Source: an uncultured Planctomycetota bacterium (GTDB lineage Bacteria; Planctomycetota; Planctomycetia; Isosphaerales; Isosphaeraceae). From it: a stretch of 64,000 bases of DNA. The first letter of the stretch is position 1; every line of letters begins with the position of its first letter. The DNA lies in assembly GCA_963823665.1 (NCBI GenBank), contig CAWGMQ010000008.1, positions 1,728,001-1,792,000 of the forward strand, in the 5' to 3' direction. The position numbers and the translations under genes are program-made. Shown one piece after another: positions 26,618 to 47,330 of this stretch. The notes beneath the pieces were generated by a model. It made no database searches. It had not been told where the DNA came from and saw only the letters and a list, made by a program, of their open reading frames with translations.

Positions 26618-26829
26618 AGAAGGGAGGCCGTTGCGTGCGAGGTGTCTGACCGAATGCATCACGGCGATTGTGCTTGACAAATGTGAACGTGGCGACGGTC
26701 ACCGTGCTTGCACGGCTGATCGGAATCAGGCAAGATCGTAGCTATTGCATGTGCGGCAGCATTCGAGACATGCGTGACTGCGGGGTGGTTCCGATCGTTG
26801 GCCGCTCGGGTTCGCCGGAGGTTCTCAAG

Positions 26830-28164: not shown

Positions 28165-28227
28165 CCGGAGCTCCATCGATAGCTTCCGGTCCGGAAGCTT
28201 TAGCGCCTTGGTTGCGGAGGTTTTGAG
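28165..28227 (+). repeat. Conserved intergenic spacer with GCTTCCG-GTY-CGGAAGC hairpin and RBS, repeated after each paralog (also 29512-29573, 30858-30919, partial 32212-32247)
   Basis: Hairpins at 28181-28199, 29529-29545, 30875-30891 and 32229-32245. Confidence 0.85.
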
Positions 28228-29511
28228 ATGATCGGATCACCGCTCGTCGTGCTGGCGATTCTGGTCGGTCAGACCGCGGCCCCGAAGGATTCAGGGGAGA
28301 AGAAAACTTCTGCGGCGAAGCCAGGCGGCAGGATTGTGTCCGACAAAGTGATGTCGGAATACAACGTCCTCAAAGCCAAGACGCCAATGACGGCTGCTGC
28401 GCGGTGGAAACTGGCACTTTGGTGTGAAGAGCATCGCTTGAAGGATCTCGCCTTTGTGCATCTGGGCGAGGTGATTTCACTTGATCCGGGGCGCGACGCG
28501 GCCTGGCGCAAGCTTGGCTTCAAGAAGCAGGGAAACCGCTGGCTGAGCGAGGCGGAGATCGCGGAGGAGCAGGAGCTAAAGAAGGCCGACAAGCGGTGGG
28601 GACCGATTCTGAAGGCGGTGCACAAGGACATTCACGGGACCAACGGCAAGGCGAGAAGAGTGGCTGCGGAGGCCGAGTTCGACAAAATCACGGATCCCCA
28701 GGCGGTGGTGCCGGCATACCGGGAGTTTGGTGGCGGGGGCGAGACGGACCACTGGCTGCTGATCGACATTCTCTCGCGGATCGAGGCGCCCGCGGCTTCG
28801 AAGCTGATGGCATTGATGGCTGTCTACGGCAAGTCGAAGGAAATTCGCCGGGGTGCGACCGAGGAGCTGCGCAAGAGGAAAAGCGATGAATACCTCGAGT
28901 TGTTGACCGGGCTGATGGCCGACGAGTACAAGTATGAGGTCAGGCAGGTCGGCGGTCCGGGGTTGCCCGGGATCTTGTTCGTGGAAGGTGAGAGGTTCAA
29001 CGTAAGGCGGTTTTACGCGCCGCCGGCGGCGCCCAACATCGTACCGCAGCCTCGCGACATCATCGCCTACGATTCAGTGGGCGAGCCGATCATTATCCGG
29101 CCGATCAGCGAGCTTGCTCTCGCGGACGCCGAATCGATCCCCCGAACCGGCTTGGCCGCACAGCCGAGGTTGGGGGAATACACTGAGATTTCGCCCTCCC
29201 GGGTCCAACTGGAAGCGGAGAGGGGGGCAGAGGAGGCCGGGAGGCAGCTCTCCCGAGATGTGGATATGATCAAGTTGATCAACAAGGAACGGAAAGAGTT
29301 CAACGAGCTGGTGATGCGGGTGGCGAGGGACGCGACCGGACACGACGGCAAGACACCGAAGGAGTGGCGGGAGAAGGTGCTCGGAAAAGGTTTCAGCAAA
29401 CCGCCCGGAGACAAGCCGACTTATCCTGAGATGGCGGTGCTCGAGTACAAGCCGGAATTCCAGCGCGTCACGACCCGATTGATACTCAAAGTTTGGATCG
29501 ACGACGGGTGA
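28228..29511 (+). CDS. Secreted paralog array member 2
   Basis: 427-aa ORF with RBS; homologous to members 1, 3 and 4. Confidence 0.88.
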   Translation: MIGSPLVVLAILVGQTAAPKDSGEKKTSAAKPGGRIVSDKVMSEYNVLKAKTPMTAAARWKLALWCEEHRLKDLAFVHLGEVISLDPGRDAAWRKLGFKKQGNRWLSEAEIAEEQELKKADKRWGPILKAVHKDIHGTNGKARRVAAEAEFDKITDPQAVVPAYREFGGGGETDHWLLIDILSRIEAPAASKLMALMAVYGKSKEIRRGATEELRKRKSDEYLELLTGLMADEYKYEVRQVGGPGLPGILFVEGERFNVRRFYAPPAAPNIVPQPRDIIAYDSVGEPIIIRPISELALADAESIPRTGLAAQPRLGEYTEISPSRVQLEAERGAEEAGRQLSRDVDMIKLINKERKEFNELVMRVARDATGHDGKTPKEWREKVLGKGFSKPPGDKPTYPEMAVLEYKPEFQRVTTRLILKVWIDDG

Positions 29512-29573
29512 CCTGAGATGCATTGATCGCTTCCGGTTCGGAAGCTTACACGCTTGGTTGCGGAGGTTTTGAG

Positions 29574-30857
29574 ATGATCGGAACACCGGTCATTGCACTG
29601 GCGCTTCTGGTTGGTCAGACGGCGGCCCCGAAGGACTCGGGGCAGAAGAAGGATCCGGCGGCGAAGCCGGGTGCCAGGATTGCTTCCGAGAAATTGATCT
29701 CGGAATACAACGTCCTCAAAGCGAAGACGCCGATGACCGCTGCTGCGCGGTGGAAACTGGCGATTTGGTGTGAAGAGCATCGCTTGAAGGATCTCGCCTT
29801 TGTGCATCTGGGCGAAGTGATTTCACTTGATCCGGAGCGGGACGCGGCGTGGCGCAAGCTTGGTTTCAAGAAGCAGGGGAACCGCTGGGTGAGCGACGCG
29901 GAGATCGCTGAGGACCTCGAGCAGAAGAAGGCGGACAAGAGGTGGGGGCCGGCGCTCAAGAGATTGCACAAGGACATTCATGGGACCAACGGCAAGGCGA
30001 GAAGAGTGGCTGCGGAGGCCGAGCTCGACAAAATCACGGATCCCACGGCCGTGGTGCCGGCATACCGGGAGTTTGCTGGCGGGGGCGAGACGGACCACTG
30101 GCTGCTGATCGACTTTCTCTCGCGGATCGAGGGGCCGGCGTCGTCGAAGGTGATGGCCTTGCTCGCTGTGTACGGCAAGACGAAGGAAATTCGCCGGAGT
30201 GCGACCGAGGAGCTGCGCAAGAGGAAAAGCGATGAATACCTCGAGTTGTTGACCGGGCTGATGGCCGACGAGTACAAGTATGAGGTCAGGCAGGTCGGCG
30301 GTCCGGGGTTGCCCGGGATCTTGTTCGTGGAAGGTGAGAGGTTCAACGTAAGGCGGTTTTACGCGCCGCCGGCGGCGCCCAACATCGTACCGCAGCCTCG
30401 CGACATCATCGCCTACGATTCAGTGGGCGAGCCGATCATTATCCGGCCGATCAGCGAGCTTGCTCTCGGAGAAGCAGCATCGATCCGCGGAACCGGCTTG
30501 GCCGCACAGGCGAGGTTGGGGGAATACAATGAGATTTCGCCTATCCGGGGCGAAATGGAAGCGGAGAAAGGGGCAGAGGAGGCCAGGAGGCAGATCGATC
30601 GCGATGTGGATATGATCAAGTTGATCAACAAGGAACGGAAAGTGTTCAACGAGCTGGTGATGGGGGTGGCGAAGGACGCTAGCGGAAAAGACGGCAAGAC
30701 ACCAAAGGAATGGCGGGAGAAGGTGCTCGGAAAAGGTTTCAGCAAACCGCCCGGAGACAAGCCGACTTATCCTGAGATGGCGGTGCTCGAGTACAATCCG
30801 GCATTCCAGCGCATCACGACCCGAGTGATACTCAAAACTTGGATCGACGACGGGTGA
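29574..30857 (+). CDS. Secreted paralog array member 3
   Basis: Starts exactly 1346 bp after member 2 and has the same length. Confidence 0.88.
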   Translation: MIGTPVIALALLVGQTAAPKDSGQKKDPAAKPGARIASEKLISEYNVLKAKTPMTAAARWKLAIWCEEHRLKDLAFVHLGEVISLDPERDAAWRKLGFKKQGNRWVSDAEIAEDLEQKKADKRWGPALKRLHKDIHGTNGKARRVAAEAELDKITDPTAVVPAYREFAGGGETDHWLLIDFLSRIEGPASSKVMALLAVYGKTKEIRRSATEELRKRKSDEYLELLTGLMADEYKYEVRQVGGPGLPGILFVEGERFNVRRFYAPPAAPNIVPQPRDIIAYDSVGEPIIIRPISELALGEAASIRGTGLAAQARLGEYNEISPIRGEMEAEKGAEEARRQIDRDVDMIKLINKERKVFNELVMGVAKDASGKDGKTPKEWREKVLGKGFSKPPGDKPTYPEMAVLEYNPAFQRITTRVILKTWIDDG

Positions 30858-30919
30858 CCGGAGATGCATTGATCGCTTCCGGTTCGGAAGCTTACACGCT
30901 TGGTTGCGGAGGTTTTGAG

Positions 30920-32211
30920 ATGATCGGATCGCCGCTCGTTGTGCTAGCGATTCTGGTGGGTCAGACCGCGGTGCCGAAGGAAGCAGGGGAAAAGCCGAAA
31001 TCGGCGGCAAAGCAGGGCGCCAGCGTCGAATCTGAGAAAGCGGTTTCGGAATACAACATCCTGAAAGCGAAAACGCCGATGACCGCCGCGGCGCGGTGGA
31101 AGCTACGCGCTGTGGTGTGAAGAGCATGGCTTGAAGGATCTCGCGTACGTGCATCTGGGCGAGGTGATTTCGCTTGATCCGGGCCGGGACGCGGCCTGGC
31201 GCAAGCTTGGATTTAAAAAGCAAGGCAACCGCTGGGCGAGCGAAGCGGAGATCGCCGAGGACCTTGAACAGAAGAAGGCGGACAAGCGCTGGGGGCCGGT
31301 GCTGAAGAAGGTGCACAAGGATATTCACGGCGGCAATGGCAAAGCCAAAAGAGTGCTGGCCGAGGCCGAGCTGAACAAGATCACCGATCCCAATGCCGTT
31401 GTGCCGGCTTACCGTGAGTTTGGTGGAGGCGGCGGAGACCGACCAGTGGCTCATGATCGACTTTTTGCGGCGGATCGAAAAGCCTATGTCTTCAAAGGTT
31501 TTGGCCCTGATTTCTGTCTATGGCAAGTCGAAGGACATTCGCCGGCGCACGACGGATGTTCTGCGCGGCAGGCCGAGCGACGATTTCATCGAGGTGTTGG
31601 TCGCGCTGATGACCGACGAGTACAAGTATGAAGTGAAGCCGGTCGGCGGCCCGGGGTCGCCGGGAGTCTTGTTCGTGGAGGGCGAGAAGTTCAACGTGAG
31701 CCGGTTTTACGCGCCACCCGCTGCGCCCAATATCGTCCCGCAGCCTGGCGACTTCATCACGTACGATCAATTTGGCGAGCCGATCATCAACCGGCCAATC
31801 GCGGAGTTCAAAGGCGGACCTGCAAAACCGCTGGGCCCGCGCGGCATGCTCGGGCAAAAGGAGATTGTTGATTTTGCTCAGATTTCGCCGTCCCAGCTCA
31901 AAATGGAAGCGGAGCGGGGTGCGGTCGCGGCAGGCAGGCAGCTCGATCAAGACGTCGACATGATCAAGTCGATCAACAAGCAACTCAAGGAGTTCAACGA
32001 GCTCGTGATGGCGGCGGCGAAGGACGCGACTGGTCACGAGGGCAAGACACCGAAGGAATGGCGGGATAAGCTGCCCGGGAAAGGCTTGAGCAAGCAGCCC
32101 GACGAAAAGCCGACGTACCCGGAGATGGTGGCGCTCGAGTACAACCCCGTATTCCAGCCCGTGGGGATCACCACGCAGACTCTATTCAAGGTCTTTTTCA
32201 ACGACGGGTGA
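30920..32211 (+). CDS. Secreted paralog array member 4, two apparent 1-nt insertions (~31106, ~31433)
   Basis: Homology runs across ORFs 30839-31120, 31131-31631 and 31393-32211. Confidence 0.8.
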
Positions 32212-33429: not shown

Positions 33430-33950
33430 GGCCCTTCGCGGTATCACTGGCCATCCGCAATAGAGGTCAGTGTATCCGGAGTCCGCATGATGAGGAAGAT
33501 TGATACCAGCCGCTGAGGTAACGACACCATCGTAGGTCAGGTCGCCGTTCTCCGTGAGCGAGCCGTATGTCGAGGGTGCGTACTGGTACGAGAACGAGCT
33601 GCCCGCGCACGAGCCGGTTGTCGCCGAGCCGAAGCTGGCGCTGATCTGCGCCGAGCCGTCGAGCGTGCCGGTGATCGTTTTCCCGAGCGAGAAGTTGTCG
33701 GAGCCCGTCTCGCCCTCGGTGAACGTGTACGTGTCGCCGCTGGTACCCTTGGTGCCGGAGGCTTTCATATTCGCATTGTCATTGCCGGAGTCGGTCCAAC
33801 CGACGGAGTTCAAGCCGCTCTCGCTTTGGCTGTTGGTGTTCCCGGCGATTGAGTGGTCGTCGCTGACCGTAAACGTGTCGAGCGAAGTGGTGGTCGTATC
33901 GCCGATTGTGATCACGCCCGAATCGCTGACGCTGTGGCTCCTCCGTGTAA
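33430..33950 (-). pseudogene. Toxin cassette 3: truncated copy of the Ser/Thr/Gly/Asp-rich constant region
   Basis: Near-identical to the N-terminus of ORF 38705-40537 up to LTYDG, then diverges and runs into the DUF4058 gene; no effector. Confidence 0.65.
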
Positions 33951-34273
33951 CGCCTCCCCAGGAGATTCGGTGGGTGTCTGGCTCCTTCCGGACTTGCTGG
34001 TGGTCGTGTCGCCGATTGTGATCACGCCCGAATCGCTGACGCTGTGGCTTCTCCGTGTAACGTCTCCGCGGGAGATTTGGTGGGTGCCTGGCTCCTTTGG
34101 TGTCTGGCTCCTTCAGGAAATTGGGTGGGTGTCTGGCTCCTTGGTGTCTGGCTCCTTGGCTCCTTCTGTGCGTGTTCGAAGTGATCAGAGGCCCTGGTTT
34201 TGCGCCGAACGTGCGAGCCGCGAATGAGTGGATGCGGGGGGCCGTGATAAAAGGATGGGTGTCTGAAATCTCT
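33551..34273. repeat. Long direct repeat A (partner 40173-40779); includes coding fragment plus REP-rich leader and an internal 110-bp tandem duplication (33888-33987 / 33998-34097)
   Basis: Direct sequence comparison. Confidence 0.92.
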
Positions 34274-34274
34274 T

Positions 34275-34976
34275 CTATTCGGTCGACGTACGCAGGCGTT
34301 CACTCTGTTCACATAGCGCGTCAATGTACAGTTGTGCGCCGATGCTGTTCGCAATCGATCGAGCGTTTTGTCGGCACAGGTCGACATAATCATTGTCGAA
34401 GTATCCACGACTGAGCATGTGCTCAGCGAGCGGTATGCAAGCCTCGAAGATTCGGTCGATCTTGCTCTTGCCCTGGGCAAGCTGACGAACGGTCTCCACA
34501 ACCGCCAGCACGGTTGTGTCGTTTTCCTTCGCCACACGCAACACGGTTGCGAGTGCTTTTCGCTCGATGTGGTAGCTAAAATACCGGCGCGTATTAAATG
34601 CAGGTTCGGCGAGCTCGGACCTGATCGGCGCGACAAAGCACCTCACACTCGGTAGTAGTGTGATAATCCTTTTTTGGCAGTTAATGAAGAAATGCTCGTC
34701 GACGTTGAACTCGCTGCCAATTCGGACCCTGTATCCGACGTAAAGCGCGTCGAGCCCGTCACCGGGCTCGTCAGGCGGGGCCACCCACAAATTGACGTCG
34801 ACATTGGCGTGCGAGGGCCGACCATCGGACACGAAGAGGTACACAACGATGTCCGGAGCGTGACTTTGAACCATGGACGCAAACGTTTTCCCAGATCCCG
34901 CTCGCGCCGGCACGAACCGATGAAGCTTCTGCAAATCGCTGAATATCTGAAAAACACTCTCTGCGAAAGAGGCCAT
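34275..34976 (-). CDS. Putative immunity protein for the upstream nuclease toxin
   Basis: 233-aa ORF, visibly more AT-rich, directly downstream of the toxin tip; no recognised motif. Confidence 0.65.
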   Translation of the reverse strand: MASFAESVFQIFSDLQKLHRFVPARAGSGKTFASMVQSHAPDIVVYLFVSDGRPSHANVDVNLWVAPPDEPGDGLDALYVGYRVRIGSEFNVDEHFFINCQKRIITLLPSVRCFVAPIRSELAEPAFNTRRYFSYHIERKALATVLRVAKENDTTVLAVVETVRQLAQGKSKIDRIFEACIPLAEHMLSRGYFDNDYVDLCRQNARSIANSIGAQLYIDALCEQSERLRTSTE

Positions 34977-35072
34977 AACGGTTGCTCCAGTAAAGAGTCT
35001 CTCCTTCCCGTTTGCATTTCCGCACGGTTCGCGCTTACTTTCCGCTGAGTCGATCGGCCAACGGCCCTCGCG

Positions 35073-37030
35073 TCAGCTTCCGGGCGCATCAGGGCCCCAA
35101 GTCCAAGGAATCTCTCCCCCGTCAAGCTGGTCCAATAGCGGGCCCATCTTTGGCTCAAGTTTTGGATCGTTTTCAAAATGCCAATGCGGGTTTGCGCGCC
35201 CCATTTGGAGGTTGTCAAGATCTTTGCCGATCTGAACCTCCATCCTATCCGACCCCTCCTGTGATAATGGCCGTTTTCCGAATGCATTGGCTTTGAATTC
35301 GACGTCCTTGCCATTAAAAAGCTTGTCATAATTTCGACCGCCGATGTTCTGACGACCTTTCCCGGGCCCGAAGATTTTCGTCGCCCGATTGTCGTGCCAC
35401 AGCTTCGCCCAATTCAGCCACCCGCGCCCTTTCTTGCCATCACCATTGCAGGTCGCACTCATGTTATGCGACCAGACCGCGAAGCCCCAGATCTGGTGGC
35501 CGATGAAGTATGTATGATATTCCGCCACGCACATGTTGTAAACAGGTGCTGATGGCTTCGGGCCTTCAAAGCCGTCCACCTTCAGCCAGCGGCCGTCGTG
35601 GCGCGGAGCTCGTCGCCTGCCTCGAGCTGGTGCGCGGCGACCCAGCCGCGGTCCTTCACCCAGAATGGGTGCTCGGCCGTTGTGCGGATCGTCCGGCCGT
35701 TTACGTACAGGTCGAGCAAGGGCAGGTAATTCTCGAAGGTGGCTTCGACCTGCCTCGGCACTGGCTCGGCGTCCGGGTCGTCGTCCGGGGCGGTGATCAC
35801 CCAGTCGCCGGGGCGGATGTCTTCGATGAACTTGCTGCCCTCCGGCGTCAAGATCGGCGTGCCCGCGGCGAAGCAGCCGCCGGAGAAGATGTCATAAATC
35901 GCGCCGCCTAGGGATAGGATGGCTTTGAGGGCGCCGAAGCTGTCGTTGTTGGCGATGGCTGTCCTGAGCGCGTCCAGTGAGTCGATGGCGGTCTTGGTCG
36001 CGTAGCCCAGCCGAACGAGCTTCAATCCGAATGCCACCAACTTCGCGGCCTGAGACGCGTCTTCACCGACACAGCCCAGGGGCCCCAGGATTTTGCCGAT
36101 CGTCACCTGAATGGCCGCTTCGTCGGCCATCGGCGCGATCACATTGGCGCCCTGGTCGAAGTCTTCTCTGTTTCCAAAAACCGGATCATTCGGTAGGTAT
36201 TGCAGTTGCGGGACCAAGTACTGCAGCAGCTTGCTGTGCTTGGCGAGACCTTGAAATGTGTCGAAGGATTGGCCGTTGCCAAACGTCTCGCCCAGGGCAC
36301 CTGGCATGTTCTGGAGCGTCCCTCCCAGCAGGCCCGCTTCGGTTTTCGCGCCCTGCCATAACCTGCCGAGCTGGTAAGCGGCGTCGTCCCAGAATGAGCG
36401 CTTCGGCGATCCCGCAGGTCCCGGACCAGCCGCTCCGGAGGGCGTGGCATTTCGAATCGCCACGACTCCCGGGTCGGCGGCAGAGCCGTCTGCCGGGAGA
36501 ACAAGCAGCAGATTCGAGGCCGGCAGGTCCGCATCGGGATCGGTAAGGAGTAGGTTGGTGACCCCAGGCGAGCCCGCTGGGAACATCGGCAACGCAAGCT
36601 GCTGGCCTCTGCTGATCGGCCCTGGCTGCATCGCGGTCGGGTTTTCATTGCCGCCGGCGTTGAAATTGCTCAGGCGGTTGAGCTCGCTGGTGGTGCCGCC
36701 GTCGCTCAGGCCGGTGTCCATCGATGGGGCGTTGCCGGGAATCGGTGGGCCTTGCGAGGTTGACGCGCTGCTGCCTGAGCCGGTCGTGGTTGTTATTCCG
36801 GGAAAGCTGCGGCGGTAGCCGATTCCCGAGGGGTGCGAGACCCAGTTTGTGGCGGTTTGACCGACCTCGTTGGATTCTGCGAGCCAGACCTCGGTGCCAG
36901 CGGTGTTTGCTTCGGGGAGGATGTCGGGGCCTGCGAAGGACATGGCGTGTACGCCCATGCCGCCCAAGGCGGACATGAGGCCGGAGCTGGTGTCGAGGCT
37001 GCCGGGCGAGGTGCCAAGGTGCAGTGCCAA
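35073..37030 (-). CDS. Toxin cassette 2: constant fragment, pre-toxin helices, HINT domain and restriction-endonuclease-fold toxin; frameshift ~35602
   Basis: CFAAGTPILT, TTAEHPFWV, then (shifted frame) VYNMCVAEYHTYFIG..VWSHN; tip RNYDKLFNGKDVEFK..QIGKD..PHWHF. Confidence 0.85.
36611..37022. repeat. Long direct repeat B, 412 bp (partner 39512-39923)
   Basis: Shared coding block HLGTSPGSLDTSS...PTAMQPGPIS at constant offset 2901. Confidence 0.92.
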
Positions 37031-37071
37031 GGGCTGAAGCCCGTGGCTATTGACCGGCGCCCCTTTGGGGC
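37027..37071. repeat. REP-like doublet CCAAGGGC-TGAA-GCCCGTGG ... GCCCC-TTT-GGGGC
   Basis: Two short hairpins beginning 4 nt from the end of repeat B; a related remnant lies near 20090-20125. Confidence 0.65.
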
Positions 37072-37174
37072 CGAAGACGATGCCGGCGTGACCGGGTTCG
37101 TCCTCGGTGAGCGAGTTGCATGTCGAGGGTGCGAACTGGGGGGGATTGCAATGCTTGTCTATGCCCTTATGCCC

Positions 37175-38350
37175 TTAGCGATAACGCCGACGGTCACCAT
37201 TTCTCGGGGAGGCACAGATTTTGAGCCAGGGTTCGACTGACTGATCGCGCAAGTCGCTTGCAGACGTCTGGGTCACCAGAGTGCGGCCGTCGGCTGAGAG
37301 GCACAATTGGCGGCATTCCTGCAGGTTCGGGCCGCACTCAACTGTGCCCAGGACTTTGCCGGTCTCGAGGCTGATGATACTGGCAAGGTTGAAGTTTGGA
37401 TATCGACCGACGGCCAAGAGCTTTGCGCGCGACGAGATCGCCAACACGCCAGCCTGGTTCAGGGTCGTCGGCGGAACGATGTCGAAGCGCTTTGCCACTT
37501 TGCCGGATGGCACTTCAATCATTGATAGTTCTTTCTCTCCCAGGTGGAAGACGTTCGAGCCGTCATCGGAGAAGGTGAAGGCCCCGCGCGAGGGCAGGTC
37601 GAGTTTTCGGGTACCGGTCGCGAGTTCATAGACTCGTCGTTGCTGGTCAAGGAAATCGTTGACAACGGCGTATCGGCCGTCGGGCGAAATTGACTCGATG
37701 GACTGGTTGGCCCGAAAGTCAACAACGCTCAGACGTTTTCCCGACCCGATCGCCCATCGAATGACAACCGGGCGGTAAGGCGGCAATCCATCGTTCACGC
37801 CTGTGGGAACCGTTCCCACCGCGAGCAGCGTTCGATCACTCTCGGTGAACGTCAGGTTCACGGCGCCTCCCTGCTCAACGATGTGCGCCGATTGCTGTCG
37901 CCCCGGAAGTGCGAAGATGGTGATGCCTCGGCCGTGTGCTACCGCGAGCGCCCGACCGCTCTTGGAGAATGCTGCAGAGAAGGAGCCGAGGAGGCTGTCG
38001 GGCGATTCCGGCAGCATGGTTGACTTGGCGGAGGTCAGGTCCCAGAGCTCCACTCCGTGCCGCACGGGCGGCCGCGGGAAGGTTGTCGATATGCTCGAAT
38101 CGCCTCTGTACGGCAGCGCCAGGGTTCCTGCGTCTGGAGAAAGGTCCCACTTCGCGTCGTAGTAGTGCGGTGCCGCGATGCCTTCGAAGATTTGCCTGAT
38201 TTTCGCGCCGTCGTTCGGCCTAACTTTGGCGCCCTCCGGCTGCCTGGTTTTGGCGCTTTCGACCTGGTCGGGCGATGGTCCTGGACAACCGGTGGAAATC
38301 GCGGCGAGCACGAAGGTGATGGTGATTCGATGAAACACCTGGCGGGTCAT
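37175..38350 (-). CDS. Lipoprotein with WD40-like beta-propeller; candidate immunity/partner of cassette 1
   Basis: Lipobox AISTGC; repeats LSPDAGTLA, AFSKSGRALA, ISPDGRYA, FSDDGS, LSADGRTLV. Probable frameshift near the end (true stop about 37194). Confidence 0.8.
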   Translation of the reverse strand: MTRQVFHRITITFVLAAISTGCPGPSPDQVESAKTRQPEGAKVRPNDGAKIRQIFEGIAAPHYYDAKWDLSPDAGTLALPYRGDSSISTTFPRPPVRHGVELWDLTSAKSTMLPESPDSLLGSFSAAFSKSGRALAVAHGRGITIFALPGRQQSAHIVEQGGAVNLTFTESDRTLLAVGTVPTGVNDGLPPYRPVVIRWAIGSGKRLSVVDFRANQSIESISPDGRYAVVNDFLDQQRRVYELATGTRKLDLPSRGAFTFSDDGSNVFHLGEKELSMIEVPSGKVAKRFDIVPPTTLNQAGVLAISSRAKLLAVGRYPNFNLASIISLETGKVLGTVECGPNLQECRQLCLSADGRTLVTQTSASDLRDQSVEPWLKICASPRNGDRRRYR

Positions 38351-38430
38351 GAGGAGTTGCTCCGCTATCTAGGCCGCATCGGTCGGAGCGATTGGTGACT
38401 GCCATCGAGGGCACAAACGGGTCAGACGCT

Positions 38431-40537
38431 CTACGACGGTGGCGGCGGTATAGGAGTGACGAGTTTCCCCGTTGGGTCGACGCCGATCCTCGGCACGTTC
38501 GGAATCCTCACTCCGTTGAGCGGGTAACTGCCTTTGGGCAAAGGTATCGGGGTTCTGTTGCGAAACTTGCGAATGCTGCCAGCGTCCCGCGGATCTGCTG
38601 ATGGCCACGACTCGCTGGGGTCGGCGAAGACATGGCGGGCGACCCTCGTGCCCCACGCCGAGAGGCGACTAAGCCAATTACTTTGATATGTAGCATCATC
38701 TTTGTTAGTCGGGTTTCGAGCCCTGAGCACGTCGGTGTCCGGAACCGGCGACTTCCCAGTAGTAGCCGCACGTTCCGAGGATCAGCGTACCGTTGGCCTC
38801 AAGGGCGTTCTGGATTGCGAGAACCAGGTCACCGATTATATTTGCCCCGGTCACTTTCACTGGCACATCTACCGGTTCACCATTCACCATTAGCGGTTCG
38901 CCGTTGAACATTGCGTTAGAATGCATCGTGATCGATGGGCTCTCGCTCTCGCCGCCAGCGTGCGACAGGATGAATATTCGCCTGAATGGCTTGCCTCCGT
39001 TCGCTGCGACCGCGTCATTGATTGCCTTTTCGAGCTCCCGTTGATTCTTCGGCTGAATTGGCGACAGCATGAAGTGGTTCGGCTTGGACGCCAACTGGAA
39101 TTCCGCGTATGTAGAGCCCCGTTGCGGGCCGGTCTCGACGGTATTCGGATCCGGTGGTTTCTCGGTTGCAGGCGAACCGGCGGTGACGATCACGAGGTCG
39201 CCAGGCCCTGGTGGCGCCTCCGGATCGACGTAGCCCTGGCGCGCTGGCGATGGCGCCGGCGTAGGTGTGCCGCCGGGCCCAAGCATCCGATTATCGGCGG
39301 GCGCGCTGACCGGAACGGATGCTAGCCCCCCGCCGTAGCCTCGCGCTGCCTGACCCGATTGCGATGAATCGACGTGGTTCGCCATGCGCGAGGCGGAGTT
39401 CTCTGGGTAATAGAGCGGGTTACCGTACGGCGTCCAGATTCCGGGCGTCTGGTCGTTCATCACAGCCGAGTCGAGCGGGCTGAGGCCGCCGCAGCCGACT
39501 TGCTCCACCCGGCTGATCGGCCCCGGCTGCATCGCGGTCGGGTTTTCATTACCGCCGGCGTTGAAATTGCTCAGGCGGTTGAGCTCGCTGGTGGTGCCGC
39601 CGTCGCTCAGGCCGGTGTCCATCGACGGGGCGTTGCCGGGCAGCGGGGGGCCTTGCGAGGTTGACGCGCTGCTGCCTGAGCCGGTCGTGGTTATTATTCC
39701 GGGGGAGCTGCGGCGGTAGCCGATTCCCGAGGGGTGCGAGACCCAGTTTGTGGCGGTTTGACCGACCTCGTTGGATTCTGCGAGCCAGACCTCGGTGCCA
39801 GCGGTGTTTGCCTCGGGGAGGATGTCGGGGCCCGCGAACGACATGGCGTGTACGCCCATGCCGCCTAATGCAGACATGAGGCCGGAGCTGGTGTCGAGGC
39901 TGCCGGGCGAGGTGCCGAGGTGCTCGGCGCTGCCGCGGGTCGAGCTGCCGATCTGGCCGGCCGTGTCAACGCCGGCGGTGTCGCCCTGGCCGGCGTATTC
40001 GGTCTCGGTGAGGTTGGCACCGTCGTCCGAGCCGGAGGTCGAGGTCGAGCTGTAGGTTCCGAGCGGCGTAGTTACGGCCGGGGCGCCTGTGACCGCATAT
40101 GCGGTCGAGAGCGAGTGGACGTTCAGCGTGGCGAAGGTGCTCGTCACCCCGTCGTACGTCAGGTTGCCGTCTTCCGTGAGCGAGCCGTATGTCGAGGGTG
40201 CGTACTGGTACGAGAACGAGCTGCCCGCGCACGAGCCGGTTGTCGCCGAGCCGAAGCTGGCGCTGATCTGCGCCGAGCCGTCGAGCGTGCCGGTGATCGT
40301 TTTCCCGAGCGAGAAGTTGTCGGAGCCCGTCTCGCCCTCGGTGAACGTGTACGTGTCGCCGCTGGTACCCTTGGTGCCGGAGGCTTTCATATTCGCATTG
40401 TCATTGCCGGAGTCGGTCCAACCGACGGAGTTCAAGCCGCTCTCGCTTTGGCTGTTGATGTTGCCGGCGATTGAGTGGTCGTCGCTGACCGTGAACGTGT
40501 CGAGCGAAGTGGTGGTCGTATCGCCGATTGTGATCAC
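38431..40537 (-). CDS. Toxin cassette 1: constant fragment plus His/Cys (caspase/C80/DUF4347-like) domain; frameshift ~38745
   Basis: Carries both repeats A and B; unique tip IFILSHAGG..TLILGTCGY; continues in ORF 38431-38730. No convincing start or RBS. Confidence 0.65.
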
Positions 40538-40594
40538 GCCCGAGTCGCTGACGCTGTGGCTTCTCCGTGTAACGTCTCCGCGGGAGATTTGGTG

Positions 40595-40787
40595 GGTGCC
40601 TGGCTCCTTTGGTGTCTGGCTCCTTCAGGAAATTGGGTGGGTGTCTGGCTCCTTTGGCTCCTTGGCTCCTTCTGTGCGTGTTCGAAGTGATCAGAGGCCC
40701 TGGTTTTGCGCCGAACGTGCGAGCCGCGAATGAGTGGATGCGGGGGGCCGTGATCAAACGATGGGTGTCTGAAATCTCTGAAATCTC
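40595..40787. repeat. Cluster of GGTG(T/C)CTGGCTCC motifs and GGGTGTCTGAAATCTC end (partner cluster 33973-34273)
   Basis: Full motifs at 40595, 40611 and 40640 plus two partial; in the partner at 33973, 34083, 34099, 34128 and 34143 plus one partial. Confidence 0.85.
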
Positions 40788-41145
40788 CCACAACCCAAAA
40801 ATGTTCGTCGCTTTCCACAGGAAACGATTTGTACCGTCCCTGGTAAACATGGCCCAGCCCCGCGTAGCCCCGATGCTGTTGCCACCGTCGCACATGGGTG
40901 ACCGTCAGCCGCTGCATGAACGCTGCCAAGTCCCCATCGCTCGCCGGCCAAACCAGAAGATGCCAGTGGTTCGGCATCAGCGCATAGGCACACACCCGCA
41001 TCGGCGATTCATCGCGTGTTTCCCGCAAGACGTGCTCAAACGCCTCGTAATCCGTTGGCTCTTCGAACAACTGCATGCGCGCCACGCCTCGATTCAAGAC
41101 GTGGAAGACCATCCCGCCTGGGGCGACCCGCGCTGTTCTTGGCAT
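40788..41145 (-). mobile_element. REP-associated tyrosine transposase (RAYT, Y1_Tnp), 3'-truncated
   Basis: MPRTAR..FHVLNRG..AYALMPNHWHLL (HUH)..GHVYQGRYKSFPV; homology stops at HFWVV. GGACCTGACCCC palindrome upstream (41186-41197). Confidence 0.88.
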
Positions 41146-41292
41146 CGAACCAAGTTACCAACAGACCACCTATTTTGCCAATATCGGACCTGACCCCGTT
41201 TTCCTCCCGCATGATGTGCGGGGGCCGTGAGTTGATGTGAGTTCTGATGCGCGGCGAGCGGATCACTGTGGGTGACGCCCTTCACCCCCTGG

Positions 41293-41312: not shown

Positions 41313-41742
41313 AAAGGGACGGGTGGAGGCTTCCGCTCGAGCGCGGTGCTTCGAGCGGAACGCTGGCGGATTACGGGGCGTTGGCGAGGCGCTTGACTCC
41401 AATCACTTACCTCAGGTATTTCAGTTTGATAATCTGGATGTCGTCGACTCGCGGTCGCTCTGGTTCAGGAGGCACGGTTTCCAGGACGATGACCTGCCCT
41501 CGTCTGTCGGGCTCCCGCGAGGCGGAATGCGAGACGCGCCGAATCGATGCGCGGAGGCGAGAGGGTTCCTCCTGCCAGAACTGTGAGAGAAACGAAGCAA
41601 GGGTCGTGACGAGGCGGGCGCGGCGAAGTGAATTGCCAGGCATTGAGATGACATCACCAGGGGTCGGGTGAGCTGCCGCAGCAGGGCGTCGAAGAACAAC
41701 TTCGGGGTTGCATCATTCGCTCGTATGAGAGGACGAATTGTG

Positions 41743-44700
41743 ATGCGCAAAGCCGCAATTGGATCCGGGCGTTCCAGGACTCGCACTCTTCGCAGGACAC
41801 TGACCCGGTTCCGGCTCGAGTGGCTCGAGCCTCGTGAACTGCTCACGGCGTATACCGTCACCGATACGAGCGACAACACGAGCATGGGCTCGCTGCGGTG
41901 GGCGATTACCCAGGTCGATGGTGACTCAAGCCTCGACACCATCAAATTCGCGATTTCGGGAACGGGGGTCCAGACAATCGACCTGGGCTCACCATTGCCC
42001 CAAATCACCAATTCCGTCCTCATCGACGGCACCACGCAGAACAATTCCTCGGGACCACCGCAGATTGCGATCAATGGGGCCTCCCTATCTTCCTCTGCCT
42101 CGGTCCTTGATGACACGGGGGGATCGTTCACGATCAAGGACGTGGCGATCGTCGGCTGCCCGGGGACAGGGATCGAGTTGACCGGGGGCGCGAACGATTT
42201 GATCGAGGGATGCTACGTTGGAACGTCCGACGGCGCGCATGCCACGGCCAATGGCACAGGCATCGAGCTATTCGGTTCAGCGGATGTCACGATCGGAGGG
42301 ACGAGCGCCGCCAGCCAGAACGTCATTTCGGGCAACACGCAAAATGGCATCGAGCTGGCACCCGGTTCAAACAATGACGACGCCATCGGCACACTCATCG
42401 AGGGAAACATCATCGGCCTCGTGGCGGGGGGCACGGCGCCCTCGGGAACGGCAGCGACGGCATCTTTCAGAATGGCGCCAACAACACGACGATCGGCGGC
42501 ACCACGGCGCTTCAGCGAAACATCATCTCTGGTAACTCGGGAGATGGGATCTCCCTCGGTACCGGTATCGACTCGCTGGTGGAGGGTAACTATCTCGGCA
42601 CCGATACGACGGGTATGGTGGCCCTGGGCAACAACAACGGCTTGAATTTCACCAACGCGTCGTATGCCACGATCGGCGGGACGGTGAGCGGGGCCGGCAA
42701 CCTGATCTCGGGCAATAACGGCGGCGGGATCAACTGTTTTGTGCTGGGCTCGACGGCTGAGCTGATCGAGGGGAACCTGATCGGGGTGGACATCACCGGC
42801 AGGCGTGCGCTGCCGAACAAGAGCCACGGCCTCCGGATCGCCGGCCCGACCAACTGCACGATCGGGGGTACGGTCGCGCGCGCGGCGAACGTGATCTCCG
42901 GCAACGGCGGTGACGGAGTAAACCTCACCGTCGGCCCCGCCAACGGGACGTACGTTCTCGGCAACTTTATCGGCACCGACTCCTTCGGTGACAACCTCGG
43001 CAATGTGGGCCGCGGCGTTGACATTGGGTCCGACGACGTCACGGTCGGCGGCACCGCCAGTGGCGCCGCCAATGTGATCGCGTTCAACGGAAGCTCAGGG
43101 ATTTTCGTTGGTGGCAACCTCGATCACAATTCCTTTCTTTCCAACTCGATCTACGACAACACCGACCTGGGCATCAACCTGGGCAACGGCCCGACTCCGA
43201 ACCATCTCGACGAACAAGGCTTCACCATACCTGCACCGAACGACTATCAGAACTATCCGGTCTTGACGTCGGCGACGTCCACATCAAAGTCGACCGAGAT
43301 CATCGGCACGCTCAATGCGTCGGCCAGCACATCTTATCTCGTCCAGTTTTTCGCGAGCCCCACCGCTGATGCCTCGGGATTTGGACAGGGCCAGCTCTAC
43401 CTCGGCAGCGCGACCGTGCCGACCGGAGCGAACTTTAACGCAAGCATTAACGCCACAGTGAACACCGCGACTCCGGCCGGCTGGGTTGTCTCGGCCACCG
43501 CGACCGACCCGCTGGGCAACACGTCCGAGTTTTCACAAGACGTCATTCCGGTGGCCAGTGCCGACATGGGCGTCGCGATCACCTCGTCGCCTACTTCGGC
43601 GGCGTATGCAGGCAGCAACCTGACATATACGGTGACGGCCACGGCGAACGGGCCGGGGACTGCTCAGGGCGTGACCGTCACCGATACGCTGCCGGCGAAC
43701 ATCGGCCAGAACGTGATCGCAAGCACGTCGGTCGCCGGCGTCACGCCGATCATTTCCGGGAACACAGTGACCGCCGATTTCGGCGCTATGGCCGCGAACA
43801 CGTCGGCAATGCTCACCATCACGGTCGTGCCGACCGCCGCCGCAATACCCCAGATCACCGATCAGGCGACGGTCACCACCCAGGGTAGCATCGACCCCAA
43901 CCCGAACAACAACTCTGCCTCGCTCACGACCACGATCGATCCCGCGGCCGACCTCGCACTTTCCCTGGCGGGGCTCCCGAGCACGGTCACCGTCGGCAAT
44001 TCAGTCACATACACATTGACCGCGACGAACGCCGGTCCTTCGGATGCGGACGACGTTGTCGTGACGGATATCCTGCCACTGGATATCACTTCGTCCGTGA
44101 CGGCGAGCACGTCGGTTGGCGGCGTGACGCCCACGGTTGCGAACGGTCAGGTCACGGCGGACCTCGGTACTCTCGCCATGGGCGCGTCGGCCACGGTGAC
44201 GATCACCGTCGTGCCCGACGGCGCGGCGGTTCCCCAGATCATCGACAGCGCCTTCATTTCCAGCAGTACTTATGATCCTGACCAGGGCAACAACTCGCCC
44301 CCCGCGGTGACAACGACGGTCAACCCTGTTCCAATGAGCGACCTGTCGATCACGATGTCGGGCGCGCCCGACCCCGTCTACGCCGGCAGCAACTTGACCT
44401 ACACGATCAAAGCAACCAACAGTGGGCCGTCGACCGACCCGGACGCAGTCGTCACCGACACGCTGCCGGCCAACGTGACCTTCGTGTCGGCCACCGGCGG
44501 GGTAACGCCTTCAGGCGACGTTTTGACGCTGCCGCTGGGCGGCCTGGCTTCGAATTCCACAACCACGGTGACCATCGTCGTGACCCCGACGGCTGCGGCG
44601 GCGGGCTCCGGTAGTGCCTCGATCACGAATAGCGCGGTGATCACCGGAGAGTACAACAGCAACCTCCAGAATTCGGCCTCGACGTCGACCACGGTGATGG

Positions 44701-47330
44701 CCTCGACAGCCATCGCGATCCAGGTCGCGCCGCAGCCCACAACGGCCCAGGCCGGCCAGGACTTGACGTACACGGTCACGGCCACCAACAACGGTCCGTC
44801 GAATGCCACCGGCTTGGTCTTGACCGACACGCTTCCTTCGGTCATCGGGGCAAACGTGTCCGCGATGACCTCGGTACCTGGTGTGACTGCTGTCGTCTCA
44901 GGTGGGCAGGTGACCGCGAGCTTCGGCGAGGTGGACCTCAATGATTCGCTTACGTTGACGATCACCGTTGTGCCGACGCTTGCGGCGGTGACTGATTCGC
45001 CGCTGGTCGACACCGCAACGGTCACCAATAACGAATTCAATTCCGACCCGAATACCGCGATGAGCTCGGTGCCCGTGGCGCCGGTGAGCAACCTTTCGAT
45101 CACCATGTCGGGTCCGCCCGGCTCGGTCGGTGTCGGGAGCGACGTGACGTATACGATCAGTGCGAGCAACAGTGGGCCCTCGACCGACCCGGACGCGGTC
45201 GTGACCGACACACTACCGGCCAACGTGACGTTCGTGTCGGCCACGGGCGGAGCGACTCCGTCCGGAGGCGTGCTAACCTTGCCGCTGGGCAGCATGGCGC
45301 CAGGCGCCATGACCACGATGACGATCGTGGTGACGCCCACCGCGGTTGCGGCCGGCACGGGCACCGGTTCGATCACGAACAGCGCCGTCATCACGTCGCC
45401 ATCGGACGCCAACCTCGAGAACTCGGCGTCGGTGCAGACGACGGTTACGGCCGTGACGGCGATCGGGCTTCACATGACGGCGACGAACGGCCCGAATTAC
45501 GTCGACGGGGACCTGGAGTACACGATCACGGCGACGAACAGCGGCCCGTCGAACGCCACCGGCGTGGTGCTGGCCGATACACTTCCTGGAGACATCAGCT
45601 CGAACGTGACGGCCACCACGTCGGTGCCGGGGGTGGGTGCCTCGATCGCGGGCGGTCAGGTGACCGCGGACTTCGGTGCACTGAACGTCGATGAGTCTGT
45701 CACGCTGACGATCACGGTGGTGCCGACTGCGACCGCGGTCGCCGACTCGCCGCTGGTCAATCTCGTGAAGGTCACGAACAACGAGTTCGACGCGAGCCCG
45801 AGCACGGCGACGCTGTCGACGACGATCCTTCCCGTCTCCGACCTGGCGATCACGCAGTTCACCGCCGCGCCTGCGGCCGTCACCTACGGGAGCGCGGTCA
45901 CGTATACGGCGGCGGTCATCAACCACGGGCCGTCGCCGGCGACCGGTTTGACAGTGACTCTGCCGATGCCGGCGTTCACCACATTCGCATCGGGGTCGTG
46001 GACCATACCGTCGCACCCAATCGATCTCGCTGGGACCGTCGATCAAGAGGGATCGAACCTGGTCGCCGACATCGGCAACCTGGCGGTCGGCTCGACTGTG
46101 ACGGTCACTATCGTGGTCACACCCCAGCAGGATGCGGTTGGAACGCTCAATGCGACGATCACCGCCTCGGCCGACGGATTCAACGAGACGGCGAGCGCCG
46201 CCACAAACACTTTGCAGACGACTGTCGAAGATCAGCCGGGGAACTTGCAATTCAGCGCGGCCGGCTACGAGGTGCCCGAAACCGCCGGTTCCGCGACCAT
46301 CACCGTGATTCGGACGGACGGGCTGCGAGGGCAGGTCTCGGTGAATTTCACGACGGTTCCGATGAGCGCGACCGCCGGCCTCGATTACACACCGGTCGCC
46401 CAGACGGTCGTGTTTCCGGCGGGCGTGGCGCGGGAGACGATTCAGGTGCCGGTGCTGGCCGACCCGTACGATGACCGCAATGAGCTGGTGGGGCTTGCCA
46501 TCAGCGATCCGACCGGGGGCGCGGCATTGGGCGCCGTGACGACAGCGACTTTGACGATAGAGGACACCGACCCGAACTCCACCGTGCCGATGGTCTCGGC
46601 CGTTCAGTGGACGGGGACGGCACGATCGATCACGAGCCTGATCATCAGCTTCAACGAGCCACTTGCGGCCGCGACTGCCGACAACCCCGCCAATTTCGAG
46701 CTGGCCGGGGTGGGCAAGAAGGGTACGTTCAGCACACAGCACGACATGCCGCTGGCTATTGAGCCGCCGGTATACGACCCGTCGAACTTTACGGTTACGC
46801 TGGTTCCCACTCACGCGTTGGGGATCAATCAGTTTTACAGCTTGCTTCTCAAAGGCACGCCGGGTGGAATTACCAATGGCGGCGGCATCGAGCTGGCCGG
46901 CGCAGGGGCTGGCCAGATCGGAACGAATTTCACTGCGTTGTTTGCGCAGGGGACGAACCTGAAATACACGGACGCGGGCGGAAACCAGGTTTCGTTCGGC
47001 GTCAAGGGGGGTGGTTACCTCCAGGATCTGCTCACGGGCTCAGGGGTAGGCCAGCGGCTTGTGCTCGTCGGCGAGGTGCCACACCGCACGATTGTTAGCG
47101 GCAGTGTCAAGCAGGGTAAGCACGGCACCGGCCGGGCCTATCTGGGCTATTCGTTTTACGGGCTGGGCCAGTTCGGAAATGTGCGGGTGACGCTCAAGAG
47201 CCCGCCGTTCCAGATTCAGCGGTATCCATTCTCGCCAGGTTTGCCGCTGGGTCCGCCGACGGAGCTTGCGCGGGTGAGCAGCGCCGGGCCGGTCGCGGCC
47301 GCGCGGAGACAATCAGCCGGACGCGGGTAG
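41743..47330 (+). CDS. Large surface protein/adhesin: LExLExRxLL export motif, beta-helix repeats, 7 DUF11-like repeats, Calx-beta; frameshift ~42443
   Basis: RLEWLEPRELL; IGGT..NVISGN repeats; NTSEFS; seven (D/N)Lx..TYT.T.TN.GPS units; LQFSAAGYEVPE..GLDYT. Confidence 0.88.

Follow-up and report, generated by a model that had tools for sequence, protein, structure and literature searches.

The window analyzed here, a 64,000-nt stretch of the genome of an uncultured soil planctomycete (Isosphaeraceae), carries on its - strand three gene cassettes and, beside them, a transposase gene fragment (Table 1). It is best read as an orphan array, now decayed, whose polymorphic toxin is large, Ser/Thr-rich and found in Isosphaeraceae planctomycetes. 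Three pairs of constant coding blocks are shared, much as a sequence-only reading of this DNA had proposed: 33524–33987 matches 40146–40609 (96.6% identity; cassettes 1 and 3), 33998–34273 matches 40510–40779 (96.4%), and 36611–37022 matches 39512–39923 (96.1%; cassettes 2 and 3). The same reading held that the cassettes differ at their ends, and this is confirmed by a His/Cys tip with a lipoprotein gene in one, PT-HINT with Imm25 in another, and a tipless stub in the third. Both here and in relatives, a constant region is followed by variable C-terminal toxin domains and then by immunity genes. Neither Pfam nor NCBIfam gave a match to the constant region. The full-length parent toxin was not found in this 92%-complete assembly; open frames exceeding 2,000 aa are present in relatives G088 and G090.

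Table 1. Features of the cassette array and its surroundings, by position in the window
Feature	Position	Strand	Description
Cassette 1	33524..33968	-	Constant stub alone
Local restart	33888..34097	-	Short stub, new TIR start at 33985, stub again
Copy of half element and TIR cluster	34083..34273	-	96.4% identical to 40510–40779
Imm25 immunity gene (putative), cassette 2	34275..34976	-	PF15564, E 2e-8
Cassette 2 toxin (putative)	35073..37030	-	Block B, PT-HINT, REase-fold nuclease-like tip (Pfam; Atlas)
Two-hairpin repeat	37031..37071	-	In frame; bridges ∼245-nt deletion in cassette 2 stub
True 5′ edge of cassette 2	37099..37139	-	41 nt homologous to block A, without upstream TIR
Predicted lipoprotein, putative cassette 3 immunity gene	37175..38350	-	Role inferred from position
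Cassette 3 toxin (putative)	38431..40590	-	Ser/Thr-rich constant stub (40146–40609, 39512–39923), then His/Cys tip
Cluster of truncated TIR starts, GGAGCC(AGACACC)	40595..40669	-	Variant of subclass-2.3-like TIRYT ends
Left half of ∼150-nt dispersed non-autonomous element	40668..40785	-	TIR arm and conserved interior, short restart
TIRYT Y1 transposase 5′ fragment, subclass-2.1-like	40780..41145	-	122 aa; PF01797, E 3e-10
Left terminal repeat of neighboring TIRYT	41186..41204	-	GGGGTCAGGTCC; GGGGTCAG type

The toxin/immunity pairs are putative, being predicted from sequence. The cassette 3 ORF spans 40537–38705, and its tip, for which we obtained weak DUF4347/C80-like leads (score 0.85), runs on in another frame. 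A homologue of this toxin is present in relative G033; the gene 3′ of the homologous tip there has 47% identity to the cassette 3 lipoprotein and weak matches to beta-propellers. The cassette 2 tip gave a REase-fold lead (Atlas, score 0.94). The break in its toxin frame near 35599 is probably a sequencing indel, and one short-read contig has one extra base at this point. Cassette 1 lacks both tip and immunity gene. No TIR motif lies at its 3′ end or at the 3′ end of the lipoprotein gene. Homology of cassette 2 had been thought to end at a hairpin doublet, yet it resumes upstream, where 37099–37139 matches 40168–40208 (85%). Therefore, the doublet replaces ∼245 nt within the stub and is not the 5′ edge. 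The true edge (∼37140) has no motif and was scored as a miss in the stub-start enrichment test described below. The doublet folds (z = –3.1) and represents a separate, second dispersed family, with 11 genome matches versus 0 in the control.

The - strand has eight GGAGCCAG(A/G)CACC motifs, at 33973–34155 and 40595–40652, and the motif occurs 20 times genome-wide versus once in the control. It had been taken for a REP-like element. However, shuffled sequences fold better than the GGAGCC clusters (z = +1.6 and +1.2), which are therefore not REP hairpins; the profiles show no GTAG foot. The motif is instead the hairpin-free TIR of TIRYT Y1 transposases, and the window cluster can be aligned to the termini of intact transposases of 410 aa. 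This TIR family (GGAGCCAGACACCC) deviates from the GGGGWSAS consensus; it corresponds to the ends of a 2.3-like enzyme. Matches to the TIR core are abundant and clustered across the genome (143 versus 6 in the control), and the repeat is dispersed in relatives too, with 29–158 matches in four and 7 in a fifth.

The ∼150-nt element whose left half adjoins the cluster truncates the neighboring transposase gene and has at least ∼40 other copies in the genome (the best 40 of 167 candidates). Segment 34162–34273 equals 40668–40785, showing that half of the element was copied along with the junction; the outer TIR edge is where the duplicated segment starts. The copied unit begins 1 nt past the Imm25 stop codon, with the TIR core 10 nt away, and further on 33888–33987 repeats as 33998–34097 (93%). 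Cassettes 1 and 3 do both start after a motif cluster, as first noted, but they carry one junction, copied once with the half element, and hence do not record two events; counting them separately was rejected. Rather than every 5′ junction lying on a REP, the window holds one independent 5′ junction on the motif.

A RAYT gene was also said to abut the array. A Y1_Tnp gene does start at 41145, but it is a dead TIRYT fragment and not the cognate of the cluster. It retains the HUH motif (HWH), but the frame breaks off immediately ahead of the catalytic Tyr: aligned with an intact paralogue (59% identity), it stops at the paralogue's 'ARY'. We rejected this gene as the acting enzyme, since it is truncated and bears a TIR different from the cluster motif. 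That TIR, GGGGTCAG at 41190–41197, fits the published GGGGWSAS consensus, and motifs of this type also lie upstream of paralogues, with restarts. Intact transposase genes matching the window's TIR family are found elsewhere in the genome (410 aa, including one at L064). Motifs of intact paralogues, HWH...RYVERN and HLH...YVDLNP, conform to the HUH and Y---NP/N pattern of TIRYTs. Inverted TIR pairs flank transposase genes at L054, L064, L162 and L346, with the window's own cluster motif being a variant and not an exact fit. The 80-bit cut-off of REP_Tyr_transpos (NF047646) was reached neither by the window fragment (38 bits) nor by two intact paralogues (34 and 68 bits). Subclass labels 2.1 and 2.3 were assigned from motifs, length and published descriptions; the GGGGTCAGACC and TGTCAGGAACC TIR families go with subclass-2.1 genes. 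Searches against PDB sequences gave weak or no matches, and a single-sequence fold of the 410-aa protein had a pLDDT of 45. Twelve distant TIRYT matches came from a plasmid search.

Toxin loci of relatives were searched and their borders mapped, and the motif proved enriched over local background. Among homologous toxin loci of the family, a TIR lay ≤100 nt upstream of 13/28 stub starts versus 1.9 expected from local density, a level reached in 0 of 200,000 simulations. With shared junctions merged by hand the figure was 9/23, leaving 14 merged starts without a strict TIR. At the other border, a TIR lay ≤350 nt past the stop of 16/29 immunity genes, 15 of them on the same strand, with gene ends taken from a crude gene caller and one of the 29 a lipoprotein of uncertain role, kept as a miss; 13/29 ends had no strict TIR. 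Corresponding values were 31/297 for other genes, 10/78 for low-GC genes and 7/90 for background. These counts, from genomes that are kin, use a strict motif set made up of the published GGGGWSAS and, for this genome, CAGRCACCC, which was derived from the window. A 'wide' set gave 18/28 and 17/29 and was partly chosen with the loci in view, so we relied on the strict figures.

TIRs sit past immunity genes on the same strand and ahead of truncated toxin stubs. Repeat profiles are sharply bounded on the 5′ side and ragged on the 3′ side, and every subfamily profiled has a fixed 5′ edge with tandem restarts. Ahead of the TIR start, the copies are unrelated to one another. The TIR family switches from genus to genus. 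In G012, each of three cassettes is followed by GGGGTCAGACC clusters, and these hold 8/29 of the genome's matches. One TIR-stub unit, always starting at the same position of the toxin, recurs at 5 loci across two genomes, and the tips that were seen there differ. G090 contains a 791-nt tip-plus-immunity piece copied at 100% identity between TIRs, and in G086 a TIRYT frame lies between TIRs 190 nt past the immunity gene and has both the HUH and the Tyr motif.

A similar layout occurs in G054, a complete genome from another family, with an unrelated toxin and a different repeat. TIRs mark 5/5 array borders, the array holds 4/11 of the exact motif matches genome-wide, and it ends in a TIRYT remnant bearing the matching TIR. 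Four stubs are 83–90% alike, and the gene joined on upstream, at the TIR start, is a different one in each; in the full toxin, no TIR is present where the stub would begin. Most arrays of other planctomycetes have no TIRs. Across 20 loci selected by HINT/Rhs, mostly from other families, TIRs were found at 7/46 stub starts (2.3 expected), 5 of these 7 in G054, and 16/20 loci had none. Judged by eye, TIRs accompany ∼6 of 25 further loci in the genus of G054 and, for Rhs loci, ∼4/23 in this genome and ∼8/25 in G090. Long arrays of G285 were viewed as ±1.5-kb pieces. A class-wide profile search, limited to the best 5 candidates per genome, matched 7/401 genomes, all of this family, and a metagenome scan yielded 1 short locus. 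TIR clusters selected solely on their motif have a mixture of genes beside them (YafQ, Uma2, NYN, DUF4058, integrase), and most low-copy duplications in sampled stretches of this genome do not end at TIRs. The link of TIRs to toxin borders is neither universal nor toxin-specific.

We consider it somewhat probable that many array borders were made at TIRs of TIRYT Y1 (HUH) transposases acting in trans. TIRYT would nick DNA in single-stranded form where the TIR starts, a fixed position 5–10 nt ahead of the core, and remain bound to the 5′ end. A tip-immunity strand, either copied or incoming, would attack this bound end with its free 3′ end, giving [immunity]|TIR, and the other end would be resolved by homologous recombination in the constant stub. 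The new tip would displace the old one, which would be left as TIR-stub-tip-immunity; a TIR-to-TIR unit could also leave as a circle and re-enter via its stub. A fixed 5′ edge with tandem restarts is what 5′-phosphotyrosine/3′-OH strand transfer, as presented in Corneloup 2021 (PMC8266576), would be expected to leave. Strand transfer by TIRYT as the source of the non-homologous junction in toxin-tip displacement has, in our estimate, slightly better than an even chance. The same activity may also truncate genes and act beside other accessory genes, so that TIRYT could be a general junction-maker with toxin cassettes as its clearest clients, and not a toxin-only machine. The original proposal was that RAYT/REP cleavage may create or shuffle cassettes. 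Its link between transposase repeats and borders is supported, being enriched in the family and recurring in G054, but the REP identity and the adjacent enzyme were wrong; TIRYT would be the candidate for cleavage and shuffling.

A passive hot spot could also produce this pattern and is the main competitor, though we think it unlikely. Here, ordinary displacement would build the arrays, TIR elements would insert later into what are dispensable regions, preferring sites just past genes and causing adjacent deletions, and homologous recombination would copy the TIR-tagged stubs and so multiply the pattern. In keeping with this, the TIR unit in the window destroys the neighboring transposase and leaves cassette 1 tipless, TIRs are abundant, clustered and adjoin many kinds of accessory genes, and most arrays elsewhere have none. 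Several stub-side TIRs point in the opposite direction, and the presence of both orientations at stub starts is easier to reconcile with insertion or deletion than with copying in one direction. However, other low-GC genes in the same loci, several within the arrays, have TIRs in just the 10/78 cases given above, and random later insertion would not yield the shared TIR edge of the four diverged G054 stubs, with their differing upstream genes, in a genome with so few exact motifs.

Rather less probable is an enzyme-free route in which the short TIR repeats, together with similar words within the toxin gene, serve as microhomologies for homology-facilitated illegitimate recombination. This is the standing proposal for effector displacement arrays in the text of Kirchberger 2017 (PMC5361080), and TIR and toxin overlap by 8–10 nt at two junctions (G081 C64; G090 C33 c). 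Yet the TIR edge is sharp and its upstream sequences unrelated, TIR-joined immunity genes share no homology at the join, and the stutter of restarts at a single position points to repeated nicking. That duplications and stuttered repeats reflect long-read misassembly is very improbable: the assembly has indel errors, and in four low-coverage short-read contig sets no joints were found, with none of the contigs listed spanning a TIR junction, but the copies differ at 16/464 and 16/412 positions, short-read contigs from other runs carry the alleles specific to each copy, so that the block copies are not an artefact, and the layout recurs in other genomes, one of them a single contig.

TIRtron/TIRYT elements, the source of the GGGGWSAS consensus, were described by Di Nocera 2013 (PMC3733652), subclasses 2.1 (in ∼15% of strains) and 2.3 by Quentin 2018 (10.1101/279083), and RAYT group 1 by Bertels 2017 (PMC5581495); the portions of these papers available to us mention no function for TIRYT elements and no link to toxins. 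The present elements resemble TIRtrons in having Y1 HUH genes between GGGGWSAS-like TIRs and copies that are scattered singly, in pairs and in clusters, and in lacking a REP hairpin; they differ in that their TIRs mark toxin-immunity borders. With REPtron/RAYT-REP systems (TnpA-REP groups 2 and 3 in Corneloup 2021) they share the enzyme superfamily, stuttered repeat clusters and, by analogy, presumably the cleavage and strand-transfer chemistry; in contrast, the junction motif has no GTAG foot or hairpin and the enzyme falls under the NF047646 cut-off. The cassettes themselves follow the orphan arrays and C-terminal displacement of polymorphic toxins (Zhang 2012, PMC3482391; Kirchberger 2017) in their tandem constant stub, variable tip and immunity gene, with PT-HINT, Imm25 and a REase-fold tip. 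The text seen of Kirchberger 2017 ascribes the non-homologous end to illegitimate recombination and reports no evidence for an integrase; here, a defined repeat and a candidate enzyme lie at that end. Two questions meet, the role of TIRYT/RAYT group 1 and the origin of the non-homologous 3′ junction in toxin-tip displacement; for both, the locus together with those of relatives points to a candidate enzyme, its site and its cut position. A full-text literature search, covering few subscription papers and no supplements, returned no published link of RAYT/TIRYT repeats to toxin cassettes, nor did the accessible parts of PMC10210955 and 10.1101/2024.07.17.603846.

The TIR-cassette association suggests a way for bacteria to join and swap toxins. 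More tentatively, TIRYTs might be maintained as cassette-joining enzymes for interbacterial conflict, with units excised as single-stranded circles that move between loci and strains and re-enter the active toxin gene via the stub, a scenario we regard as possible and on the whole doubtful. Were it true, there would be an integron-like toxin diversification built on an HUH nuclease, and a function for the large RAYT group 1/TIRYT class. Integrons form arrays of gene-plus-site units, and in ISCR/IS91 rolling-circle capture, HUH-made circles re-enter by homology. If the model holds, both features would apply here, with the differences that the sites are short TIRs without structure and that the enzyme would work in trans. 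No IntI integrase was seen among the window ORFs scanned, nor was an attI, an attC or a tyrosine recombinase noticed at the array.

A 9-copy PT-HINT array at C11:155–171 kb was considered as a control and dropped, as it is a HINT-fused paralogue family without tips, immunity genes or TIRs. This family resembles the repeats at 26.7–32.2 kb of the window.

Two reports (Di Nocera 2013, PMC3733652; Quentin 2018, 10.1101/279083) describe TIRYTs, RAYT-like genes that have terminal inverted repeats on both sides, the repeat core being GGGGWSAS. All subfamilies of the terminal repeat (TIR) profiled here have a sharp 5' edge, upstream DNA unrelated between copies, ragged 3' ends and tandem restarts. 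The sequence-only reading had placed a RAYT beside the toxin array; a Y1 transposase gene with a TIRYT-type end does adjoin it, but is cut off ahead of the catalytic Tyr. The cluster motif had been taken for a REP. It does not fold and is not a REP; it matches the ends (left, GGGATGGCAGACACCCA; right, GGAACCCAGACACCCA) of a second, longer transposase type rather than those of the adjoining gene. This longer type has 26 matches in the source genome (G000), with full 410-aa frames in at least two. The core occurs 143 times, versus 6 for a reversed control.

Features of the toxin locus (window positions) and group II introns at TIRs (L, stretch examined)
Feature	Position	Strand	Order or content
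TIR, first feature of locus	41204-41186	-	precedes Y1 transposase fragment
Y1 transposase, first 122 codons	41145-40780	-	
Half of dispersed ~150-nt element	40785-40668	-	after Y1 transposase fragment
Cluster of GGAGCC(AGACACC) starts	40669-40595	-	after half element
Cassette 3	after GGAGCC cluster	-	Ser/Thr-rich toxin stub, His/Cys tip, lipoprotein gene
Cassette 2	after cassette 3	-	stub, PT-HINT, REase-fold tip, Imm25
Cassette 1	end at 33524	-	half element, cluster and stub again, with short restart; without tip
Group II introns at TIRs	L036:6026-8037 (G000:C6); L007, L009, L011, L012, L015, L017; L091:18700-18860 (G012)		

The constant blocks are indeed common to the cassettes (96% identity). 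The motif cluster precedes both cassettes 1 and 3, as claimed, but these represent one junction duplicated by copying. The repeated half element, cluster and stub (constant toxin region) open 1 base past the Imm25 stop codon. Homology of cassette 2 was said to stop 4 nt from a doublet, here a hairpin pair (37031-37071). Because it resumes upstream, at 37099-37139, this doublet is the mark of a deletion inside the cassette; it belongs to a separate dispersed family (11 matches versus 0 for the control). In stretch L078, the two-hairpin repeat apparently also lies in frame, there inside a transposase gene, judged by a near-identical peptide, and is truncated just as it is in cassette 2. At 40534-40537 (GTGA), the GTG that opens the cassette 3 toxin frame shares bases with the stop codon of the truncated transposase, an arrangement in which this stub might be translated off the transposase promoter. 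No full-length toxin was found in the 16.5-Mb, 92%-complete G000 assembly, of which the window is C8:1728001-1792000. Tandem paralogues at 26668-32211, spaced by 1346 nt, resemble by eye a 9-copy array at G000:C11:154913-171069 (L031, L032), each copy of which has a C-terminal PT-HINT without tip or immunity gene.

A toxin-stub profile search gave matches in 11 of 121 family genomes, and 24 regions were mapped. With a strict motif set (published GGGGWSAS plus CAGRCACCC from the window), a TIR lies ≤100 nt upstream of 13 of 28 stub starts, versus 1.9 expected from the density within 5 kb (9 of 23 after shared junctions were merged by hand). TIRs also lie ≤350 nt past the stop of 16 of 29 immunity genes (same strand in 15), compared with 31/297 other genes in the same loci, 10/78 low-GC genes and 7/90 genes in unrelated stretches; because the genomes are kin and gene ends come from a simple in-house caller, P-values overstate these enrichments. 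In one family genome, G012, each of three cassettes with different tips (variable C-terminal toxin domains) is followed by clusters of a different TIR, GGGGTCAGACC, and the following stub begins 35-56 nt past it; of 29 matches in this genome, 8 fall within the array. One TIR-stub unit has an identical toxin start position in five loci (G012, G081). Elsewhere, a 791-nt tip-plus-immunity piece is duplicated between TIRs at 100% identity (G090), and 190 nt past the immunity gene of G086 lies a TIRYT frame that is bounded by TIRs and has both the HUH and the Tyr motif. Two stubs of G088 (C40, C32; L157, L159) begin at the same toxin base, but the opposite-strand repeats that they adjoin are of different types, which suggests either a favoured target or shared ancestry.

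The repeat enrichment at cassette starts proposed for relatives held for these stubs. In 20 loci picked by PT-HINT or Rhs matches, mostly of other families, TIRs mark only 7 of the 46 stub starts, against 2.3 expected; G054 accounts for five of the seven, and 16 of the 20 loci have none. In G054, a single-contig genome, a 7,909-aa frame is followed by four orphan cassettes with stubs 83-90% alike, all opening at a TGTCAGGAACC-like TIR shortly past the preceding gene. A TIRYT remnant carrying that same TIR closes the array, whose 9 kb contain 4 of the 11 exact motifs present in this genome. Agreement with the transposase end is closest for the TIRs next to the full toxin, and decay is more advanced in the third and fourth (L346:5620-13510), a hint of an age gradient (n=4). 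In G016, a 2,172-aa Rhs-core frame is followed by a further gene and, a few bases past this gene, by a stuttered TIR.

By eye, TIRs are present in ~6 of 25 more loci from the genus of G054, and in ~4/23 (G000) and ~8/25 (G090) Rhs loci; in a wider set, 6 of 57 Rhs loci have one within 1.5 kb. In 33 loci of G012 and G081 chosen on the motif only, the 118 neighbouring ORFs scanned were mixed: YafQ, Uma2, NYN, DUF4058, integrase and glycosyltransferases, with a few toxin-like neighbours (e.g. RHS, eCIS-core). Most low-copy duplications in the G000 stretches examined have no TIR at their ends. These results count against TIRs at cassette borders as a universal rule.

Repeat positions, polarity, the sharp edge and intact transposases were observed directly. 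TnpA-REP enzymes, which are related to TIRYTs, nick single-stranded DNA and hold a 5'-phosphotyrosine, to which they can join any 3'-OH (PMC8266576). We infer, as on balance probable, that a TIRYT links a tip-immunity strand by its free 3' end to the TIR start, the other end being sealed by recombination within the constant stub. Old tips would remain as TIR-stub-tip-immunity units, the layout seen in G012 and G054. That TIRs were instead inserted later into dispensable arrays, with adjacent deletion, is a possible but rather unlikely course; it accounts for the destruction in the window and for reversed TIRs, and fits G054 poorly. Enzyme-free microhomology seems improbable, and assembly error scarcely credible.

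Alleles of both block copies are present in short-read contigs from other runs; none of the contigs listed spans a junction. In run X2, one contig links cassette-3-specific sequence with two cassette-1 alleles (40076-40512); either this contig is a chimera or another strain has undergone gene conversion. The frame break in HINT appears to be a sequencing error of a single base. A break near 42435 in the beta-helix/DUF11 gene (41668-47330) is absent from short-read contigs of two runs, and this is probably a single intact gene.

Both halves of the coupling are already known: TIRtrons, and orphan toxin arrays with displacement, described in PMC3482391 and PMC5361080. The latter (Kirchberger 2017) names illegitimate recombination as the source of the non-homologous end, noting no evidence for an integrase. 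We found no report of TIRs or TIRYTs coupled to toxin arrays in the main text of the openly accessible papers searched. Such coupling supplies a testable candidate mechanism. TIR-toxin arrays may resemble integrons and ISCR.

Group II introns (Rfam D1-D4 and RVT matches) lie inside or directly behind TIR cores, at the identical base relative to the core in many G000 copies. By their placement, TIRs look like an intron target; attC sites are the target of some class C introns. At G000:C11:540000-580000 and C6:905000-925000 (L033, L034, L036), introns, gene fragments and accessory genes of small size alternate with dense runs of the ~150-nt element; these stretches are possibly TIR-punctuated arrays without toxins.
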